DNA of 64,000 nt from Glycera tridactyla (lineage: Eukaryota): the NCBI GenBank assembly GCA_965644265.1, contig OZ286459.1, positions 131,316,001-131,380,000 of the forward strand. The letters run 5' to 3'. Positions within the stretch are counted from its first letter, which is position 1; every line of letters begins with the position of its first letter. Both the position numbers and the translations under genes were made by a program. This document shows, one piece after another, positions 2,184 through 50,901 of this stretch. A model generated the notes under the pieces. That model saw nothing but the letters and a program-made list of their open reading frames with translations, was not told the origin of the DNA and made no database searches.

Positions 2184-3770
2184 CTCGTCTCTGTCTTCAG
2201 GAGTCTAAACGCCATGGCATTTGCTCACATTTGCATCCTCGCGACAGAAATACATTGTATGATGTTCAAATCACAGTATTCTTGAGTCCATCGTTATTAT
2301 CAATCAGCTGCAATGGTTCAAACGTTTTTCTGAGACACGTTTCAGGGCGGAATTATGGAGGTATAGAGAGTGGTGATCTATTTATGACTTTCTGTAGCTA
2401 ACCCACCAAAGTGGATTCAGTTACATCTATTCTTCAGTTATGAAATATGTTTCAGCAATCCTACTCCACTAATTTTCTGACTAAAACTACATTGGTGATT
2501 TTGTTAGGAATAACTTTCCTACAAAGCCACACCTGCTGGCAATTCAGAATGAAACGGATTTATATTGCTGATGAGGCTATTTTATTATGGCTCAATCTAG
2601 AACATTTTTGGGAAGTATACGTAGTTCAATCATTATTGGCGTTTTAAGTGAGTCTAAGAACGTGAGTAGAGTTGGGTAAGTGATCATGATTGAATAACAC
2701 CTATTTTCAAATTGCCACTTTCACAGAACTTGCCTTCTCTTATTTGATGCTTCAAAACGAATATCGAGATGATGGACATTACGTGATGTCGGCGAGGACC
2801 TTACTCTCTTGATTGTAATCTATATCTATGGTGGATCAACTCAGTCCCTGCTGCAGTTTTCCTCGTCCCACATTGATGATGAATCATTCATATCATTGGC
2901 CATTATTCTCTCTGCCTTTTGGGGAACAAATGCCTTTCAGACTTGTATCACCTCACTCGACATTTTAATTGGACAACCATGAACTCATTTGAAATGANNN
3001 NNNNNNNNNNNNNNNNNNNNNNNNNNNNNNNNNNNNNNNNNNNNNNNNNNNNNNNNNNNNNNNNNNNNNNNNNNNNNNNNNNNNNNNNNNNNNNNNNNNN
3101 NNNNNNNNNNNNNNNNNNNNNNNNNNNNNNNNNNNNNNNNNNNNNNNNNNNNNNNNNNNNNNNNNNNNNNNNNNNNNNNNNNNNNNNNNNNNNNNNNNNN
3201 NTTTATTTATCTTCGTCAATCATACAAAGTACAATATACAATGCTCCTAATGGTGGGTCTCCATGACGACGAAGGTGAAAATAATAAACTCACAATACAA
3301 TAACTATATATGACATCCTGTTATGGGAATAATAAACAAAATCATCTAAGATGACTATGATCGTTTCTGATCTGACTAAGACAAGCTTAGCCAATTTTAT
3401 ATTAGATCTAGATGTAGTAACCTATGATAATAATACGATAGTAAGGAAGACACACATGACATATCCCACCCATACAAAATCTACGCCCTCCCAAATCCCA
3501 CACCCCCCCCTCACCCCACACCCTTAACACCTGATAGAGACCATAAAATAATCGTACACATCAAATACATATATCAAATAGAATAAAATTAATTTAATAG
3601 TTAGTCCATCCACTAAGTAATTTTTATGATATATGGTTGCAAATTTCAAAAATGATATTGTGAAAATGATATTGAGAGCCAAGGAAATGAAAAGAGATGA
3701 AATGAATAAAACATAAATCATAAATCCCTTAAATCCCTTAATAACGGATATTATATCTCCATTGACAACA

Positions 3771-6695
3771 TTATATTAACAGAAAGCCTTCCAGCTTTTC
3801 TTTAAAAGATTGATGGTCCGTGTTATTAAATTCTGAGTACTTTGCAGCATATTGATTCCATTTTTTTGCACTTCTAAACCTGAAAGACCCTTCACATTGC
3901 TTTGTTTTTGGGTATTCAATTTTGAGAAAAGGTCTCATTATAGATCTTGTAGCATAATCATGACTCGTGTTTGAAAACTCACATAATGGTGTATATTGCT
4001 GGTGGATTTTACCCTGCAAGATTTTGTTTGCATAGATAAGGGTATGACATTCCCTACGACAATCCAGATATGGCATTTTTAAAAGTCCATGATTTGTTCG
4101 TGTTCTTGTATATGGTTCACATTTAGTGATTATCCTAAATGCTTTATTTTGAATGCGTTGTAGTTTACAAGCATCAGCCATACCTAGATTGTCGTAGACA
4201 ATGTCACAATAATCAAATATGGGCAAGATGAGCGTCCTGTACAGCATCAAGGTTGTTTCCATATTGAGAACTCCCCTGAGTCTACCCAGAAACCCCACCC
4301 TGCCCACTGTTTTTTTGCGAATATGTTCAGCATGTATCTTAAAACTCAGTATCGAATCTAGATATACTCCGAGATACTTAAAGCTATCGACCTTTTCGAT
4401 TTGCTGATCGTTGAAAGATACTGATATCTCACATACTTGGTGCCGAGTTCCAAAGACCATAATTTGTGTCTTTTTCACATTTAGACTCAATCGGTTTCGC
4501 GACATCCAAATACTAATATCTTTCAAAGAATCGTCTAGTTTCTCTTGTAGAGCAACTGGAGATCTATCGGCTACCAAGATGGCAGTATCGTCCGCGTAGA
4601 GACTCATACTGGGTCCTCTCATAAAAGTAGGAATATCATTCACATATATAGTGAATAAAAGAGGACCCAGTATGGACCCCTGCGGGACTCCACAAGTAAT
4701 ACCTCGTTCTGATGAAAAAACACCATTTGCTTTGACATGACACGTACGATCACTCAGATAACTCTTGAACCATGAAATGCCACGGTCATCAACACCATAC
4801 ATAGTCAATTTTCTCAGGAGCAGCCCATGGTCCACCGTGTCGAGAGCCTTCTTAAGGTCCAGGAAGAGCACCCCACTGGTCAAACCCTGTTCCAAATTAA
4901 CATATAACTTGTCGAGGAACTCTAATAAACACGATCCAGTGGAGCACCCTCCTCTGAACCCAGACTGCTCCCGACACAGTAGACCATGGGATTCGAAATA
5001 AGCTGCAACTTGCTGATGGATAAGTTTCTCTAAGATCTTGCTCATGGTACTCAGGAGGCTAATAGGCCTGTAGTTGGCTTCCATATCACGTTTACCATCT
5101 TTAAAAAGAGGCACGATGGTGGCGGACTTCCAGAGTGAGGGGAATACACCTCCGGTGATGCTGTTATCAAAGATATGTCTTAGCATAGGGATGAGGACAT
5201 CGATGCAAGGTTTGAGTATTTTTGATGGTAAACCATCATCTTTCCCTGCTTTATTGAGAGAGAGTTCATTTACTACATTTGTTATTTCGTCTTCAGTGAC
5301 AGGTCTTAATGAAAAGGTATCTTTCCTGTTAAATGGAAAGTTTGACAGGGGGTCGACACCATCATCAATGATACCTTTGCTCAGGTTTTCCCCAATAGTA
5401 CTAAAAAATATATTTAGTTTGTCAGCAATTTCCTTTTTGTCAATACTATCTCCAATTTTCAAAATATCAGTAGAGCCCTTTCTACGTCCCCAGAAACTGT
5501 TCAGGGTCTCCCACATCTTCTTAGGATCGTCTTTCTGGTCATTTAGCCAATTTTGAATATAATCATGTTGTAGTCGGCGTTTGAGATTCAGGCATTTTTT
5601 TTCAATATTTGTTTTCAGAATTTTATTTCCTTCAGTATTATTTGACTTGAAATTTTTATTTGCCCTCTCTCTCTCTCTGACCAGGTCTAAATACGCCCCA
5701 TTCAACCATTTGGGCCAGTTTTCCGTTACTCTGTGTCTTTTCAGGGGGACATGTTTGTCATTGATGTTATTTAGAACTTTATGAAATATATTAGTTATGA
5801 CATCAGCATCAGTGGAGGCGTAGAACTCATCCCAGTTGTATCCCAAAATATCTTCTTTTAGCTTATCAAAATCTGTTTTTGAATAATCTTTAAAAGATAC
5901 AAATGTAGATTTGCGAGGTTGTGGCAGCTTCTTTCGGGATACCAGTATAAGACTATGATCGCTTAAACCAGTTTCTAAAACCCCATGTTGGTGATACATT
6001 TCTGGTCTGTTTACAAGTATATGGTCAATGAGTGTCTGGGACCCAGTAGTAACCCGAGTGAATCTATCAAGGAGTTGGGTTAGGTTATTATTTTTCATCA
6101 TATTAACATATCCTTGATCAGGTCTAGTTTTCATATAGTCTATATTAGTATCTCCAATCACTACAATATCAGGGGAAAGATCAGATCCAAGGTTTATTAT
6201 ACTCTCCTCCAACCAGTCAATAAATGCACTAGGGTTACCTTGTGGTGGACGGTAAAGCCCACAGATATAAATCGGACGCGTATCAGGTAGCACAAGTTTT
6301 AGCCAAAGAGCTTCGATATCACGATTGCATATGACAGTATCTTCCAACAATTCGATATACCTGTCCTTTCTGATATATATTACAATACCTCCTCCACTTT
6401 TCTTCCTACTTTCTAGTGTGCGATCACAACGGATTGTATAGTAGCCTGGGATTTCTATCACACTATTATCTTGAATTGACGTGAGAAAAGTTTCAGAAAC
6501 AATCAAAATGTCAAGTTTACTCTTAAGCAAAATGAGATGAATATCGGTTATTTTACGTGTTATTCCTCTGATATTCAAATAGGCAATTTTGACACCCTTA
6601 AATCTCTGCAAATCATCCGCTGAATTTAGTTGAACTGTACGATATACATTATGGTCTAAGGTGGTGTGATCCCCAAAGTCTGTCATGTGTTTCAA
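3771..6695 (-). CDS. LINE ORF2: apurinic-like endonuclease + reverse transcriptase (974 aa, uninterrupted)
   Basis: APE motifs YLNIRG, VSETFL, SGGGIVIYIR, GLYRPP, VIGDTNID, TLIDHIL, SDH. RT motifs NYRPISLL, QSGFR, FLDLKKALDTVDH, GVPQGSILGPLLF, LYADDT, KYLGVYLD. The C-terminal YATRS...SFRFRSAKKWN is typical of the CR1/L2 group. Confidence 0.97.
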   Translation of the reverse strand: MKHMTDFGDHTTLDHNVYRTVQLNSADDLQRFKGVKIAYLNIRGITRKITDIHLILLKSKLDILIVSETFLTSIQDNSVIEIPGYYTIRCDRTLESRKKSGGGIVIYIRKDRYIELLEDTVICNRDIEALWLKLVLPDTRPIYICGLYRPPQGNPSAFIDWLEESIINLGSDLSPDIVVIGDTNIDYMKTRPDQGYVNMMKNNNLTQLLDRFTRVTTGSQTLIDHILVNRPEMYHQHGVLETGLSDHSLILVSRKKLPQPRKSTFVSFKDYSKTDFDKLKEDILGYNWDEFYASTDADVITNIFHKVLNNINDKHVPLKRHRVTENWPKWLNGAYLDLVRERERANKNFKSNNTEGNKILKTNIEKKCLNLKRRLQHDYIQNWLNDQKDDPKKMWETLNSFWGRRKGSTDILKIGDSIDKKEIADKLNIFFSTIGENLSKGIIDDGVDPLSNFPFNRKDTFSLRPVTEDEITNVVNELSLNKAGKDDGLPSKILKPCIDVLIPMLRHIFDNSITGGVFPSLWKSATIVPLFKDGKRDMEANYRPISLLSTMSKILEKLIHQQVAAYFESHGLLCREQSGFRGGCSTGSCLLEFLDKLYVNLEQGLTSGVLFLDLKKALDTVDHGLLLRKLTMYGVDDRGISWFKSYLSDRTCHVKANGVFSSERGITCGVPQGSILGPLLFTIYVNDIPTFMRGPSMSLYADDTAILVADRSPVALQEKLDDSLKDISIWMSRNRLSLNVKKTQIMVFGTRHQVCEISVSFNDQQIEKVDSFKYLGVYLDSILSFKIHAEHIRKKTVGRVGFLGRLRGVLNMETTLMLYRTLILPIFDYCDIVYDNLGMADACKLQRIQNKAFRIITKCEPYTRTRTNHGLLKMPYLDCRRECHTLIYANKILQGKIHQQYTPLCEFSNTSHDYATRSIMRPFLKIEYPKTKQCEGSFRFRSAKKWNQYAAKYSEFNNTDHQSFKEKLEGFLLI

Positions 6696-7548
6696 GAATA
6701 TGTAAATTTATTGGTATATAGATAAAGATGAAAAGAACATGAATTAATTAGTCGCCAATAGAATATGGTGCCGTATATATATTAATGGTAGCTTGGCTAC
6801 CGTAAATTAACAAGATGGTGAGAAGGTATTTGTTTCAGCTCACTATGCACCAGTTCAAGATCTGGCTCCGCCAAGGGAATTATGGTTTTAAACAAATAAG
6901 AGATTAGATCACCTCCGAACACATATCAAAACTTGTGGAACTTGTTGAATAGTGTTGAAAAGAAATTACAGTACATCATTTACAAGATAAACTTAAAGAA
7001 CATTTGTTTAACTTGAATTGGCCATAAAGAAATTAAAGTTTTAGCAGAAGAAAGAAAGTCGATGAAGAAAGAAAACTGAACGTAATTCATCACGCACCTG
7101 TGATGGAAAGCAAGAAAAACCTAAAGTACGGCTCGAAAATCCTGTCACCGTTTTGAACACGGGTGTATTTTCTCAATCCCATGTTTAAGTGACAATGAAG
7201 AATAAAGTTGGACATACTAATACATCGACACAGATCCTACATTAATTTATATGAAATATCATCAGGTGACCAATATGTTTTTAACATTGTAGAAATAGTC
7301 ATGTCTCAATAATATCAAACCAGTCATAGGAGAAACAAATCAATTGATGTTTTGTCTCTGATCCCCATGTGACGTAATGGGATCAGAAAAGATTATGGTG
7401 ACCAATACACCAGTACATCAGGTAATTTTCATATATGATTCTATGGTACATAGCATTCAGCATTCAGAAAGTGGCATTATTGAATTGAAACTCCATATCA
7501 GTCTCGCTTGATATATTGCATTTTAAATTAGTTCTTATATGATGTCTT

Positions 7549-8179
7549 CTATGCTTACCCAAGGACCACACATATGGTGAGAGCATGAGAAGGCATAGGA
7601 ATAAATAGGTGATGTAATTATCGTTTTCAGCTTTAGTTACCACTTTGCCACATCTGTATACTTTATGTATGGTGTAATATAATGTAATATAATGAGGATC
7701 ATGATTCATTTACGAAAAGTACACATGAAATGCAAAATATGTGTAATACCCCAGCTTTTGTTACATGCCTCCTTGGTTTAGCGCCAAGCATTTTAATTTA
7801 TGACAATGAAAGTGAGAGAATGTCCTAATATATGCCTAAATCTATGCCACTCCAAAGGACCACTCATATGGTGAGAACCTGGAGAGTCACAGCTGTTGAT
7901 AATTTACAAGAGTTTCTCTCTTTTCATGTCATCAACCACCATGCTTTTTGCTTGTCAGATCATATTGCGAAATCAACTAGTCCCACGGTACACACCTGAA
8001 TAGAAAAATTACATATCATGTTATATTTATCAAAACAGATGATAATTCCATCCAATCAGTTGTTTAGCGCTTGTACTACAGTTTGTGACAACGGAAATAA
8101 GAGAAAATCCAGATCAATACCTAAAACTATGCACACCAAAGGACCACTCATATGGTGAGAACCTGGTGAGTCACAGCTG
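7549..8179 (-). repeat. Three dispersed copies of a ~45-60-nt hairpin-forming motif (7549-7583, 7835-7895, 8120-8179)
   Basis: CCAAAGGACCACTCATATGGTGAGAACCTGG (31 nt) is identical at 7852-7882 and 8136-8166. A third copy, AAGGACCACACATATGGTGAGA, starts at 7561. Spacing is ~284-294 nt. Confidence 0.9.
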
Positions 8180-8328
8180 ATTTTGTTGTTATAGGTTTCT
8201 CTCATCTCGTGTCTCACACCGCACTGCACTTCGCCCATCCTCTCCTTTTCCTTCAACAGCTCCAAGTAATTTCTAAGTTCATTTCTGTCCAGCAGACTAT
8301 ATAACATATTATCAAGAGTTTTTATCAA
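8056..8328 (-). CDS. Possible small ORF (90 aa) downstream of the SGNH ORF
   Basis: The N-terminal half looks helical and charged (LDRNELRNYLELLKEKER). The 3' half overlaps one copy of the repeated hairpin. No homology recognised. Confidence 0.2.
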   Translation of the reverse strand: MIKTLDNMLYSLLDRNELRNYLELLKEKERMGEVQCGVRHEMRETYNNKISCDSPGSHHMSGPLVCIVLGIDLDFLLFPLSQTVVQALNN

Positions 8329-8367
8329 ACGTTAGAAATATATCTCAATAGCTTTGGTCAAGTCAAA

Positions 8368-9249
8368 TCAGGTAGTATAGAACCAGTTGTCAAGAATGGA
8401 TCCAACAACCGTATAGCATACTGCCAAGTTTCCAGAGTCACTCAAATGTATTCTATCTGGTAGGATCATCCCATTCATGACATCGCCATGAGAACATGCC
8501 TTTTTTCTCACACGCCTTCTTCTCAACAGGCTGAAGGGTTGTGTTGTGCAGTTGTAAGGTTTCACAAATAGATAATGGGTGTTTAAACAAAGCATATCTA
8601 CAAACGCATGGTTCTTGAGGTAATTGTCAACCAACAATGCTAGAACACGTGCCTCATCTGACCACCCTGGTCTCCATACAATGGGAATGTTACAAAACTT
8701 TGCAAGTGGGAAGTGGTTGAAAAGCAGGGATAGAACATCCGTGATCTTCTTTGTCAATTTATTGAATTCCTCCGTTCTAAGCCTGGTCACTACTCTGTTA
8801 CGAATACGTGGATCTCTGATGAAAGTGGATGAAGTTTTCAATTTGTTGGCAAATCTGTCTATATCATTTGAGCCCAGTATCATGACGATATAGTCCGGAG
8901 ACCAATTTTCTTCGTTAAGTATCGACATTAGTGAACCACCATACATTTTTGATTTTTTCTTTCCAGCAGGTGTGTTAGCAAACTCACCCCGAATCTCTTT
9001 GGTAAAGTAATACCAACTGCCCCCACTAATGCCATAGTATTTCCAGGACTGCAGAAGGGCTTGTAGATCATCATGGTCCAGCATCCTGTTCACATAATCC
9101 CCGAGCCGCCATACATGGCTGCTGCCAATAACCAAGACGTTAGGAGAACCACGTTCTGCGAGTAAATGCCTCCTGCGATAAATAGGGCATTTTTCATATG
9201 TCCAGGTGACACGGTCTCTCGCAATGTCACCAGCCAGGGATGGGTTAGT
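8368..9249 (-). CDS. SGNH/GDSL-family hydrolase (esterase) ORF, candidate LINE ORF1; open frame extends upstream to a splice acceptor at 9250
   Basis: All four SGNH blocks are in order: VIGSSH (Ser), YGISGG (Gly), LGSND (Asn), LPDRIHL (DxxH). The frame stays open 38 codons upstream of the called TTG start, to TTTTATGTATGTTATAG|. Confidence 0.85.
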   Translation of the reverse strand, partial: TNPSLAGDIARDRVTWTYEKCPIYRRRHLLAERGSPNVLVIGSSHVWRLGDYVNRMLDHDDLQALLQSWKYYGISGGSWYYFTKEIRGEFANTPAGKKKSKMYGGSLMSILNEENWSPDYIVMILGSNDIDRFANKLKTSSTFIRDPRIRNRVVTRLRTEEFNKLTKKITDVLSLLFNHFPLAKFCNIPIVWRPGWSDEARVLALLVDNYLKNHAFVDMLCLNTHYLFVKPYNCTTQPFSLLRRRRVRKKACSHGDVMNGMILPDRIHLSDSGNLAVCYTVVGSILDNWFYTT

Positions 9250-9571
9250 CTATAACATACATAAAACATTTAATTTTGAGATTTGTGGCACCTAGACCAG
9301 AAATCCGGTTAATAAGCTTATTTGGATGTTGTTTGTAGTCAAGGACAAGACTTGTATCAAGAAGTCTGCAAAGTTTGACGGAGATTCACCTGACAGCCAT
9401 AGTAAATGCATTCCGGCTATGGTAGCGCATTCTCTGTATCTAGGTCATACTATTTATACCGCGTGTTAGCGAGGGCAGAAACACGCTAACTCTCACAAAA
9501 CAACACCGGCGCCGTGCCCGCAATTTCCATACAGTGATTCTCTACTTCAACATCGCACAAGGGATAGTTAC

Positions 9572-9640
9572 CTCATTTCGGTAGCCGGCTTTCCAGTCGT
9601 TGAATCGGCTATTTGTGATTAGATTCGCGTAGCTAGACAT
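9572..9640 (-). CDS. Putative first coding exon of the SGNH ORF (MSSYANLITNSRFNDWKAGYRNE)
   Basis: ATG at 9640, 23 open codons, then GAG|GTAACT donor in phase 0, matching the phase-0 acceptor at 9250/9249. Confidence 0.45.
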
Positions 9641-9697
9641 GTTGCCGTGTTGTTTCGATCTCAAAGGTTACGGCGGTACTAGTTCCGCTCTTGCGCA

Positions 9698-10097
9698 TCA
9701 ACTTTTTCTGCCGTTCGGGACTGTTCGAGAGACCGACTTACCTCCACCGCGGTTGTGCTTATACGATCCTCCTTTCTGACCACGCCCAGCAGAAGCAGCA
9801 GCCATGGCAGTTTTGAGGTCCGGAAACATTTCTGGATCAGGTGTATAGTTATTCCCAAAGGGAAGTCTAGACTGTTTCATAGGATTTGATTTTTTTATGT
9901 CATCTTTGGTTTTTACTTTATTCCTAATTTGAGATTTCTTACCTTTGACAAATTTCCAAAGTGACAGATCACTCTGATTTTGTGACGGTTTTTTCAAATC
10001 CGGTTTTGTCAGGGCATCATCTCTTTCATTTTGCAAGTTCGGAACAAAATCCGAAAACATTTTAGGTATGGCAGTGGTATTTTGGTCATCAGTGGTC

Positions 10098-10160: not shown

Positions 10161-10859
10161 GCTCAGGTCTGGTAGACTGTCGATATTGTGGCTGACAGTT
10201 ATCGACGTGTAATGACAGCTCATTTACAATGGATCCATTTGTTGGCATTCTGCATGATAAGCTGATCCCTGTTGTCAAATGAGAATACATCTAGGTGGAC
10301 AGCACATGCGTGAGGCTTTCACACTGAATTATTCTCCCACACGCTATTATGATCACCACTTCTCACTTGCATCATATCAACACTGAAGGCATGCCTGCGG
10401 AAAATAACCCCTAATCCTGGTTCATATGTGATCATCCGTGGCAATCGCATGAGGATAAAGCTCGTTTATTAGATGCTTCAAACTCCCAACCGCCAGGTTC
10501 ACTGGTTCCACATCTACATGTTCAGTGTTCTCAGTGGTTCACATACATCCGTTGGATCATCTTCCCTATCCACTTCCTTGACCTGGATTCTCTGAAGTAT
10601 GACGACAGAACCGTTCGCGCCATTGATCATGCATATGAGAAACTAGTCAAACTGTATAGAGATCTGTGTAGGCTGGTTGGGGGTGCAAACGCCAGAATTG
10701 ACACATTCTGCGAGTGGTGTGAGCATGACATACAACCTGGTGTATCCTTAGCATGTGGCTGCGATGGGGGTGAAGAAAAAAAAACAGTGCATCGAGGAAA
10801 CCCAAAATAACCAAATTGACCACATTGTGGAGCCTCAAGTATTCGGGCTGTTCCCCCCT

Positions 10860-12117
10860 GGCATCTGTTGTTAATCAATGCAGGGTGTGTATGTATGCCG
10901 ACGACACTGCGCTTCTTACCACTGCTAAATCTAAGCATGTTATCTGTGATAAACTCCATTCTGATATGGAGTCAGTTGGTCAATGGTCAGCTCTTAACAA
11001 ACTGAGTCTCAACACTTCAAAATCAAAAACAATGTTTTTTGGAATCAGCCAAAGACTAGCGAGCTCAGTGAATATAGAAATCTCACTTGAATTTGAAACG
11101 GTTACATCTTTTAATTATCTAGGAGTCTGGCTGAACCCCTGGCTATCCTTCGAAACACATGTGGACAAACTGTGTAGCAAGGTCAAGTCCAGATCAGGCA
11201 TGCTCCGCCGCTTGCGACCCCGCATTGACAAGAATCTAGCAATTCATCTTTTTAAAACAATGATTCTATTTATTATAAGTTATGGTGATACCATACATGC
11301 AGGTTTGAACAAACAGCTATCTCGAAGACTTGCTGTTCTAGTTAACTCAGGAATTCACACCTGTCTGAGGTGTGATCCTCGTACCCCAACCGATATACGG
11401 TACGCTGACTCTGGGTTATACACTCTAACTCAAACAAGAAATGTCCACACTGTGTGCGATTTTTAAAAGATTGTGAATGGTGAATGTGCAACAAGCTCCG
11501 GAAAAACATTCGCAAATTTATTTATTCCTGGAACTCGAATGACTAGAGCTATGGAAAGAGGGTCCCTGTGCATCCCTGGAACACGCCTAAAATAATCTGA
11601 GGCTGTCTTCCATAAACGATGAGCCTATCTGTGGAATAGCTTGGAAGAGTGCTCCAGGGCAGCACCCTCTATCAGCAGTCTTAAACGCTGTCTGAGAAAT
11701 GACCCTTCTTTCTCAACCTACTTGATAGCGTGCAAATATTAAAGTCTATCTATATGAATTTATCGACTGCATATGCTCCCATTCGTGGGACTGTCTAATT
11801 CTAATTCATGTTAGTTTCACAGCACCTTTTAACATCTCACACTTGAATATTTTTTCTCAACCGCGTACTACCTGTATTTTATTTTATATTTATGGTATTA
11901 TTCTATTCTCATTCATATGTGTTACTTGATCATTCTCATGTAATGTATTGCCAGACCTGTACCCGCATCCTGTTTTGATCACATTGTTATTATTTTACCA
12001 TCTTTTTGTATGTATTGTATTGCCATGCTTGTAAATGTGTTTTTGTACTCGACAGGGGACGAAATGGTCTCGACCCTCCCTGAAGAGTATAAATAAAGTT
12101 TCTCAAAGTTTCAAAGT
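10860..12117 (+). mobile_element. 5'-truncated, decayed CR1/L2-group LINE
   Basis: MYADDTAL, KLSLNTSKSKTMFFG, FNYLGVWL, HVDKLCSKV. Coding continues past in-frame stops to AYLWNSL (~11730). A 3' UTR follows, with a CAGGG...CCCTG hairpin, AATAAA and a short AAAGTTT(C) repeat tail. Confidence 0.9.
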
Positions 12118-13011: not shown

Positions 13012-13600
13012 TGCGTGGGCATGATGTCACTGATTCAGCAGGCACCGCGTGGGCATGATGTCACTGATTGCTGCAGCAGGTACCACGTGGGCATGATGTC
13101 ACTGATTCAGCAGGCACCGTGTGGGCATGATGTCACTGATTCAGCAGGCACCGCATGGGCATGATGTCACTGATTGCTTCAGCGTGTACCGCGTGGGCAT
13201 GATGTCACTGATTCAGCAGGCACTGTGTGGGCATGATGTCACTGATTCAGCAGGAACCGCGTGGGCATGATGACACTGATTGCTGCAGCAGGTACCATGT
13301 GGGCATGATGTCACTGATTCAGCAGGCACCGCGTGGGCATGATGTCACTGATTCAGCAGGCACCGCATGGGCATGATGTCACTGATTGCTTCAGCGTGTA
13401 CCGCGTGGGCATGATGTCACTGATTCAGCAGGCACTGTGTTGGCATGATGTCACTGATTCAGCAGGAACCGCGTGGGCACGATGTCACTGAATCAGCAGG
13501 CAACGCGTGGGCATGATGTCACTGAATGAGCAGGCACCATCTGGGCATGATGTCACTGATTCAGCAGGCACCACGTGGGCATGATGTCACTGATTGCTCC
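13012..13600. repeat. Minisatellite of 34/38-bp units (GTGGGCATGATGTCACTGATTCAGCAGGCACCGC), ~17 copies, with higher-order structure
   Basis: The ATGATG core recurs at 13021, 13055, 13093, 13127, 13161, 13199 ... 13581, giving periods 34,38,34,34,38,34,34,38,34,34,38,34... Confidence 0.97.
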
Positions 13601-14249
13601 AGCCATCCTGGCTACATGACCCTTAAAGAGGTCACGGAAGGGCTGCCTTCAGCCAATAGGTGCTTAGTAGACCAAGAGCTGTGTTGGGAAATCCCGATGA
13701 GAGCTCTATAACCCTGATGATTCTATATTGAATAGTACACATTCAGCTGATTCCAACAATGAGTAGAAATTTGAATTGAGAAAATGTATTTATACGCCTC
13801 TCCTGTGAGTAACCAGGTCCATAGGGATATCCTTCATGAGTAGGTGAGAGAGACTTCAAATCCAATTATCTCAAAAACAACCAGTTGTTGCTATGCTGAT
13901 TTTTTCATGTGGGGAGTGCGGAAACATAGTACCATCGCAAGGCAGTTGGATGCTGGTTTTGGGAGGGGGAATTTGACAAATTTAACATTGAAAAGATAGA
14001 AATTTCTTTTAGCATGAGCTTGTGACCCTGATATTCGACAAGAGCGTCAGTATGCATGTCCACAGATGAAACTGTATCCAATGTTCACAATCAAACTTCT
14101 CAAACTGACACATGTTCTCATTGGACAAGTATCCGGATAATTTCACCTCCAGGAAACATGGGCTGCCTTAGTTTACTTAGAGGCAGGGCATGACACGAGT
14201 GGGTAATGTATTCATACAACCATTGAGAGGCCCTGATACATTCAATGAA

Positions 14250-49600: not shown

Positions 49601-50901
49601 CACACTTGGACAGGTAGGTCACCAATCACGTCCCACCAAGGTCATGCCAAGTATCATGTCTCATACTACCATACCAGGACTCACATTCGGACAGGTAGGT
49701 CATCAATCACTTCCCACCAAGTTCAAGTCAACTCTCATGTCACATACTATCACGCCGTGACTCATACTTGGACAGGTAGGTAACCGATTACTTACCACCA
49801 AGGTCATGCCAACTCTCATGTCTCATACTACTGTACTGGAACTCACACTTGGACAGGTGGGCCACTAATCACTTCCCACTAAGGTCCTGGCAATTCTCAT
49901 ACCTCATACTATCATACTGGGACTCACAATTAGACAGGTAGGTCACTATTCACTTCCCACTAAGGTCATGGCAATTCTCATACTTCATACTATCATACTG
50001 GGACTCACAATCGGACAGGTAGGTCACCAGTCGCCCCCCCCCCCCCCTGCAAGGTCTTGTCAACTTTAATACCTCATACTATCGTAATGGGACACACGCT
50101 CGGGCAAGTAGGTCACCAGTCACTTCTCATCAAGGTCATGTCAACTCTCATGTAGGTCGCTAGTCACTTCCCACCAATGTCATGTCAACTTTAATACCTC
50201 ATACTATCATACTGGGACTCACGCTTGGACAGGTAGGTCACCAGCTACTTCACACCGAGGTCATGTCAACTCTCTTGTCTCATGCCACCATACCGGGACT
50301 TACTCCTGAACAGGTGGGTCACCAATCACTCACCACCAAGGTCATGTCAACTCATATGCCTTTTTCTACCATGCAGGGCTTCGCCTTTGTAGATCACGAA
50401 GCCCTTCCGTTCGAAGTCATGTTATTCTTCCTTATACTATCGAGCCGGGCTTCACTCTCGGGCAGGTAGGACCCAATCACCCCCCAACAAGTTCAAGTCA
50501 TATCATATACTACCATGACGGGACTCACATTTGGATAGATAGGTCACCAATAACTTCCCCAAGGTCCAGTCAACTCGCCGACCTTGAACATCCATACACA
50601 CCAAGCACACGCTTGAATAGGTTGAGCACCAATCACTCGTCAACTGTCTTAGATCATACTAAGCAGGTAGATTACTGGTCTTGAAACTCAAGTTGGCTGG
50701 CATTCACACTCATTTTTAGGGTTTAAGGTCATTATTTCCCCTATGACATCGATCCAATTAGATCACTGAATCATTGTGATTTTAGTTTTGCGCGATGATG
50801 GACGTTTTGCAAGAGATGCTGGAGCAGATCAATCGACAGCGCAGAAACAAGATGATGGACGAGGCGGTGGACACAACCAACTCAGGATACAACAGGTATT
50901 G

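Follow-up and report, generated by a model that had tools for sequence, protein, structure and literature searches.

An APE-type LINE with three genes

The window, by which we mean the whole 64,000-nt stretch of Glycera tridactyla contig OZ286459.1 (positions 131,316,001 to 131,380,000), carries a LINE on its minus strand, with ORF1, an SGNH esterase gene and an endonuclease-reverse transcriptase gene (ORF2) in that order. Between the esterase gene and ORF2 lies a spacer, 1.2-2.9 kb long among copies of the element, and in the window this spacer holds three RNA hairpins (Table 1).

Table 1. Features of the element in the window (window coordinates)
Feature	Positions	Strand	Remarks
ORF1, 3' remnant	9698..10093	-	window copy 5'-truncated near 10093
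Esterase exon 1	9572..9640	-	23 codons from ATG; conserved peptide
Predicted spliceosomal intron	9250..9571	-	GT-AG, phase 0, 322 nt
SGNH esterase exon 2	8368..9249	-	293 codons; motifs GSSH, GSND and DxxH present
Hairpin 1 (first in sense order)	8124..8178	-	core 8141-8162; ~205 nt behind esterase stop; covariance-model match
Hairpin 2	7840..7894	-	core 7857-7878; recent duplicate of hairpin 1; covariance-model match
Hairpin 3	7546..7600	-	core 7563-7584; second, older stem type; covariance-model match
Second conserved spacer motif	6787..6818	-	CATCTTG and short palindrome, ahead of ORF2
ORF2, apurinic endonuclease and reverse transcriptase	3771..6686	-	RVT_1 E 1.4e-35, Exo_endo_phos E 3.4e-11; own conserved ATG
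3' UTR	3202..3770	-	terminal ~110 nt conserved

In other copies, the full ORF1 is about 510-580 aa long and matches Baculo_FP_2nd just below the cut-off. In all lineages its C-terminus (window ~9700-9800) is a basic tail rich in Arg and Gly, which is conserved and is a candidate for RNA binding. The truncated 5' end of the window copy is adjoined by the 3' piece of an unrelated LINE reverse transcriptase (RT) on the plus strand (10774-11700). We also noted minisatellites in the window at 13013-13603, 41079-41525 and 49398-50353, with units of 34, 90 and 81 nt.

For comparison with other copies, we used 80 ten-kb stretches of the genome, 20 of them taken by hairpin DNA and 60 by protein; in the genome search with the esterase protein, 134 of 3516 candidates were scored. 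The gene order is the same in nearly all 80 stretches, and RT identity is mostly 56-95%. Copies of the element are dispersed, and they have a common 3' end with a short tail and variable 5' truncation. With its endonuclease, its RT and the dispersal of its copies, the element is an APE-type LINE (non-LTR retrotransposon). We found no convincing target-site duplications in these stretches, most of which stop short of the true 5' end. Judging by RT motifs, the element may belong to L2/Crack/Daphne within the CR1 group. The nearest Atlas cluster is 93% eukaryotic and mostly molluscan, which is a lead only.

Two full-length elements (L177, ~2842-2856; L178, ~2628-2642) start with an AAGA(C)ATGGCGGC motif, which is presumably YY1-like. 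Another stretch, L179 (G000:C29:54944000-54953900), consists of tandem 4.84-kb units of ORF1, the esterase gene and two hairpins, with five esterase matches in a row and no RT between the units.

The available sections of PMC3905857 and PMC13343379 show that the esterase LINEs of the CR1 group (ZfL2-1, CR1, L2 and RTEX) likewise have an APE-RT ORF2, intact SGNH esterase motifs, 5'-truncated copies and a conserved 3' end, and LINE esterases are described there as part of ORF1. In contrast, the esterase of the present element is a separate gene. A full ORF1 of the coiled-coil/RRM type precedes it, a predicted intron interrupts it, and the long spacer parts it from ORF2. An esterase encoded as a separate ORF3 is described for rotifer LTR elements in the available part of PMC5408684.

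A separate esterase gene with a predicted intron

The gene upstream of the hairpins is a third, intron-bearing esterase gene and not ORF1, a gene that the earlier note on this DNA had missed. Its product is an SGNH hydrolase, based on its motifs, weak Pfam matches and fold: the S, G, N and H blocks are conserved in the 37 copies that we aligned, 29/37 match Lipase_GDSL at E<=1 (best 2.4e-5), and the top Foldseek matches are SGNH esterases and PAF-AH, which have a flavodoxin-like fold. The protein also carries invariant basic inserts.

Among the 75 copies that hold the start of the main esterase exon, AG precedes this exon in 74, and the short first exon with its own ATG was located in 67; the remaining eight were not settled individually. 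The predicted intron is 237-603 nt long in these 67 copies, and in every one (67/67) it runs from GT to AG in phase 0 and has an in-frame stop inside. Its pyrimidine tract, GT..AG ends, restored frame and free interior lead us to predict a U2-type spliceosomal intron. The unspliced acceptor pattern has 135 matches in the genome (0 for the control), and the spliced junction, given as the exon-2 pattern joined to the end of exon 1, has 0 matches in the genome.

We considered whether a large intron could join ORF1 to ORF2 and remove the hairpins. This is ruled out, as ORF2 has its own conserved ATG and no splice site in the spacer recurs at a fixed place in the 35 lineages. We also looked in the spacer and after the hairpins for a conserved poly(A) signal and found none, so that any mRNA of the esterase gene would run on into a very long 3' UTR.

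Located 45-67 nt before the esterase ATG (window ~9690-9705), there is a GCGCATGCG-like motif in 16/30 lineages when one mismatch is allowed, compared to 1/315 control windows; the copy in the window itself fails this test. The motif resembles an NRF1 site and suggests a possible internal promoter.

LINEs are expected to lose introns on copying. In the available sections of PMC8557442 and PMC3846280, genomic copies that keep a spliceosomal intron are described as unusual and as a peculiarity typical of Penelope-like elements, with a mechanism that is stated there to be unknown. The present LINE has intron retention in common with them. It differs in being of the APE type and not GIY-YIG or telomerase-like, and in that its intron lies in a coding gene and no hammerhead was found.

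Three hairpins in the window

The three hairpin copies stand at the positions given in the earlier note, and the two near-identical ones at 7852-7895 and 8136-8179 are indeed alike at 43/44 nt. The sole mismatch (7883 A, 8167 T) is offset by a change at its pairing partner (7851 T, 8135 A), as the note had pointed out, and at the same stem position the third copy has an apparent C-G pair by eye, which makes three pair types there. The third copy has 20/22 core bases in common with the other two. The cores of hairpins 1 and 2 are identical (22/22), in contrast to flanks that are 51-61% alike (random 42 +/- 10%). The window triplet thus combines two old hairpin types, the first of which was recently duplicated. 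About 100 nt between the esterase stop and hairpin 1 (window ~8229-8332) are missing from the two closest relatives.

The start-to-start spacing of the three hairpins is 294 and 284 nt, but the fixed period of ~290 nt that this seemed to indicate does not extend to other lineages, where the spacing ranges from ~110 to ~870 nt. When folded alone, the window hairpins have little advantage over shuffled sequences (z -0.3 to -1.6 in one run and -0.9 to -2.1 in another), so the case for the motif rests on the hairpin family and not on the window.

A hairpin family across the genome

Genome-wide, a degenerate pattern of the hairpin core has 283 exact matches, compared to 2 for the reversed control. 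Counts given for the genome are pattern matches, and a covariance model was applied to the collected sources. This model was built from 71 non-redundant hairpins, which match it by construction. It gave 177 matches in 81 sources, and all of them (177/177) are on the sense strand; 167 are located in the spacer and the other 10 are in copies that lack one of the boundaries. Two to four model matches were found in 75 of the 81 sources. Where loci had been taken by protein alone (60), the hairpin is present at least twice in 54, always on the sense strand, and the remaining 6/60 have a diverged form that is found by the pattern and weakly by the model.

For measurements on the motif itself, we used a set of 72 hairpins, obtained from 87 non-redundant pattern matches after taking away 15 false ones (14 with two mismatches and one off-model). 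In this set, identity is 84% and 90% in the two halves of the core, compared to 35% and 39% in the stem arms and 28% outside. Although the arms are variable in sequence, they pair: a hairpin's own arms pair at -17.3 kcal/mol, compared to -8.8 for 4762 swapped pairs, and the sense strand pairs better in 60/72 (p 3e-10). When all 87 are kept, the values are -15.5 for own arms and -8.4 kcal/mol for swapped arms, and the sense strand is better in 69/87. Stem covariation is 0.378, compared to 0.192 +/- 0.012 when shuffled and at most 0.139 when slid, and 88.6% of cells pair. The number of pairs with a double change is 7, compared to 5.8 in shuffles (65/500), and is thus not above shuffles, which ignore relatedness.

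Of the fold proposed earlier, the inner stem ACCA/UGGU is present in the three window copies, but as a register for the family it has one pair broken in 24/71 hairpins and no double change. A shifted register fits better. Reading inward, the consensus consists of a long variable stem, a G-C pair, a 2x2 pyrimidine loop, a C-G pair (71/71), a U-R pair (U-G or U-A in 70/71), a bulged pyrimidine, an A-U pair (70/71), a C-G pair that has turned to U-A in 6, and a cross-loop C-G that closes four free bases, with one or two bases extruded.

The conserved core is kept even in lineages where the RT is only 56-60% identical and the spacers do not align, and conservation of the hairpin extends over dozens of the family's distant lineages. 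With such conservation and with a stem that covaries across copies, the proposal of a selected RNA element stands: the motif is real and under selection, it is missing from Rfam, and the LINE that carries it has an unusual architecture.

Placement of the hairpins within the element

In 31 of 35 lineage representatives with model matches, the first hairpin lies 150-451 nt after the esterase stop (sd 81). The last hairpin, in contrast, lies 592-2220 nt before the ORF2 AUG with 11-67 AUGs between them, and this distance tracks the length of the spacer (rho 0.79). The position of the hairpins is therefore tied to the esterase stop and not to ORF2. Later hairpins are found up to 1.4 kb from the esterase stop, and copy number and spacing vary freely among lineages, as for additive sites.

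We also built a quick RT tree from 64 copies. A clade with 33 of them (SH-aLRT 92) has short loops in every hairpin found, and copies outside this clade have longer loops. A change of loop size in all hairpins together at one node of the tree is expected if their partner is encoded by the element. This concerted change fits co-evolution with an element protein, and it could also stem from re-duplication of the hairpins.

In most lineages, the ORF2 ATG is preceded at 60-150 nt by a different conserved motif, CATCTTG followed by the palindrome GTAGC-NNN-GCTAC. The palindrome shows symmetric changes such as GTTGC/GCAAC and GTAGT/ACTAC, and the motif is either an RNA triloop hairpin or a group of DNA sites of an internal ORF2 promoter. 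If they are DNA sites, we would take them to be YY1- and RFX-like.

Comparison with known RNA classes

Rfam gave only chance matches for the window region and for seven diverged loci. The view of the earlier note that the motif is not a hammerhead or HDV ribozyme agrees with this, as the hairpin is unbranched and CUGANGA is found near only 1/72. We rejected the following classes as well: iron-responsive elements, as a CAGUGN loop is found in 0/72; SECIS, as RUGA is in the 5' arm of only 13/72; kissing-loop dimer signals, as the loop has a 6-nt palindrome in 21/72; and H/ACA snoRNAs or scaRNAs, as no H or ACA box is found at a fixed distance from the pocket in the 72 hairpins. In the twister-sister-like loop, G-C-U-C-A-A lies opposite G-C-U-A-G, and the hairpins have U for the first G in 68/72 and C for the last A in 61/72. 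The available part of PMC11620745 describes twister-sister-like (lantern) ribozymes in human LINE-1 and OR4K15, which have two stems around a small conserved loop and a C-A step like that of our hairpins; our hairpins lack their key guanine and two more bases of the loop.

We found no sequence match in Rfam to an element described as being of the CTE, RRE or RSE type. By description, however, there are likenesses, which we draw from the available sections of PMC4338338 and PMC4764554. The MPMV CTE, which acts with NXF1, also forms a hairpin whose internal loop is invariant, has been duplicated in its mobile element and is linked to an RNA with a retained intron (PMC4338338), but the present hairpins are outside the intron and show no sequence match to it. 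The RSV RSE likewise has structured, pyrimidine-rich motifs shortly behind an internal stop with kilobases downstream (PMC4764554); it is one 400-nt element, whereas here there are dispersed hairpins of 55-80 nt.

Possible functions of the hairpins

The element has two RNA problems, in that its template must keep the intron and its upstream genes are trailed by kilobases of RNA. Retroviruses solve such problems with CTE/RRE and RSE elements, according to the available sections of the same two papers (PMC4338338, PMC4764554). Based on the position of the hairpins, we tentatively favor the reading, though with somewhat less than even confidence, that they are protein docking sites that likely stabilize or export the intron-keeping RNA in the manner of a CTE or RSE. 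The intron would be spliced in a separate esterase mRNA, probably transcribed from an internal promoter, and only the unspliced RNA would be the template for new copies. With its intron and several kilobases behind early stops, this RNA would be held in the nucleus or would decay unless it carried a signal, and the hairpins may be that signal, comparable in action to the CTE/RRE of retroviruses or the stability element of RSV. The partner may be encoded by the element, in the basic C-terminal tail of the ORF1 protein or in the esterase, which carries basic inserts, or it may come from the host. The invariant unpaired bases (the 2x2 pyrimidine loop and the bulge) on an otherwise free stem, together with additive copies, suggest a protein site. 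The weakness of docking sites as an explanation lies in the position of the hairpins outside the intron: a spliced esterase mRNA would have them too, and alone they cannot tell the unspliced form apart. Intron retention could also come from cis-preference or nuclear capture, without any role for the hairpins. In addition, the RSE and PTBP1 work within about 200-400 nt of the stop, according to the available part of PMC4764554, whereas later hairpins are up to 1.4 kb from it.

The main rival, which we hold to be rather unlikely, sees the hairpins as signals for cleavage or 3'-end formation. They would cut themselves or be cut by a nuclease of the host, and the spliced esterase mRNA would end ahead of ORF2. 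Such a cut short of the LINE end would directly explain the missing spliced copies, since a spliced RNA without the LINE 3' end is never copied, and it would fit the finding that no poly(A) signal is conserved. The core, which is compact and does not vary, contains a bulged Y-A step, and it has C-U-Y-A opposite U-R-G in common with the twister-sister-like loop (available part of PMC11620745), but the guanine before CUCA in the ribozyme loop is mostly U in the hairpins, and they differ from it at two more loop bases. In each of two lineages, one truncated copy has an apparent start near core base 2 (L035, ~3466; L293, ~1503 in minus-strand count), yet these are the only copies that begin inside the core compared to 283 intact cores, the boundary in L035 is ambiguous, and a pile-up of truncated-copy 5' ends at the hairpin core was looked for and not found. 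The full-length RNA would also have to survive two to four such sites, yet long copies are common. We think it unlikely that the hairpins are instead localization or packaging signals that, along with the esterase, direct the RNP into the nucleus of germ cells or onto membranes, in the way that the RNA of the Drosophila I-factor has transport stem-loops. This reading would suit hairpins that are long, bulged, repeated and placed as in a 3' UTR, and also the membrane binding of LINE esterases (available part of PMC3905857), but Egl-type signals are often without overt sequence patterns (available part of PMC13186709) and the core here is sequence-invariant. Localization also leaves intron retention unexplained.

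That the hairpins drive translation of ORF2, by internal entry or by the re-initiation that the earlier note had suggested, is very improbable. They do lie between two ORFs on the sense strand, but the long distance and the many AUGs before ORF2 argue against re-initiation, and it is a different conserved motif that is found 60-130 nt before the ORF2 AUG. We give scarcely any chance to the motif being a DNA element, such as a factor site, or the precursor of a small RNA such as a miRNA or H/ACA RNA; the core is invariant in sequence and some stems are as long as those of pre-miRNAs, but G-U pairs favor the sense RNA, conservation peaks beside the loop and not along a 22-nt arm, and an ACA or H box is found in at most 7/72 at any offset. 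Practically no weight is left for a neutral tandem duplication. Hairpins 1 and 2 of the window do derive from a recent duplication, and the spacer has other repeats, but their cores have stayed identical while the flanks diverged, the core outlasts divergence of the RT and of the spacers, and the excess of core matches over the control, the covarying stem and the contrast in identity between core and arms refute it.

Significance and occurrence elsewhere

Taken more broadly, this may be an animal LINE family with retrovirus-style RNA control, with three separately controlled genes, a spliced accessory esterase gene that never loses its intron and a new class of hairpin that chooses the RNA to be copied, either by docking a Rev-like protein encoded by the element or as a new small ribozyme that cuts itself; we consider this possible, though the doubts are larger than our confidence. 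In this LINE family, a predicted coding intron is present in well over a hundred copies, and the spliced junction has no match. The family also offers a short, defined RNA motif that has 283 genomic examples and can be mutated in a reporter. This makes a retroelement's choice of unspliced RNA directly testable, and it adds an RNA motif that is missing from Rfam.

We found no paper on a three-ORF, intron-bearing APE LINE or on such a hairpin in a search that covered the openly accessible literature; a database entry, for instance in Repbase, may exist. A paper on bivalve transposable elements (PMC10294476) does not contain the words esterase or SGNH, and the available part of a Chlamydomonas preprint has nothing on such a LINE layout or hairpin. 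Beyond this genome, a metagenome scan gave 111 single matches to the hairpin, and none of the 80 loci that we examined (0/80) encode a relative of the element's proteins. No relative was found on viral contigs or by a word-seeded protein search, and a profile search matched 110 distant proteins.

We also observed a far more distant family (L143, 3951-8840 on the minus strand), with 34% identity in the esterase and 43% in the RT. There is no covariance-model match there, but the AG acceptor is at the same place, and a degenerate core can be seen by eye behind the stop.
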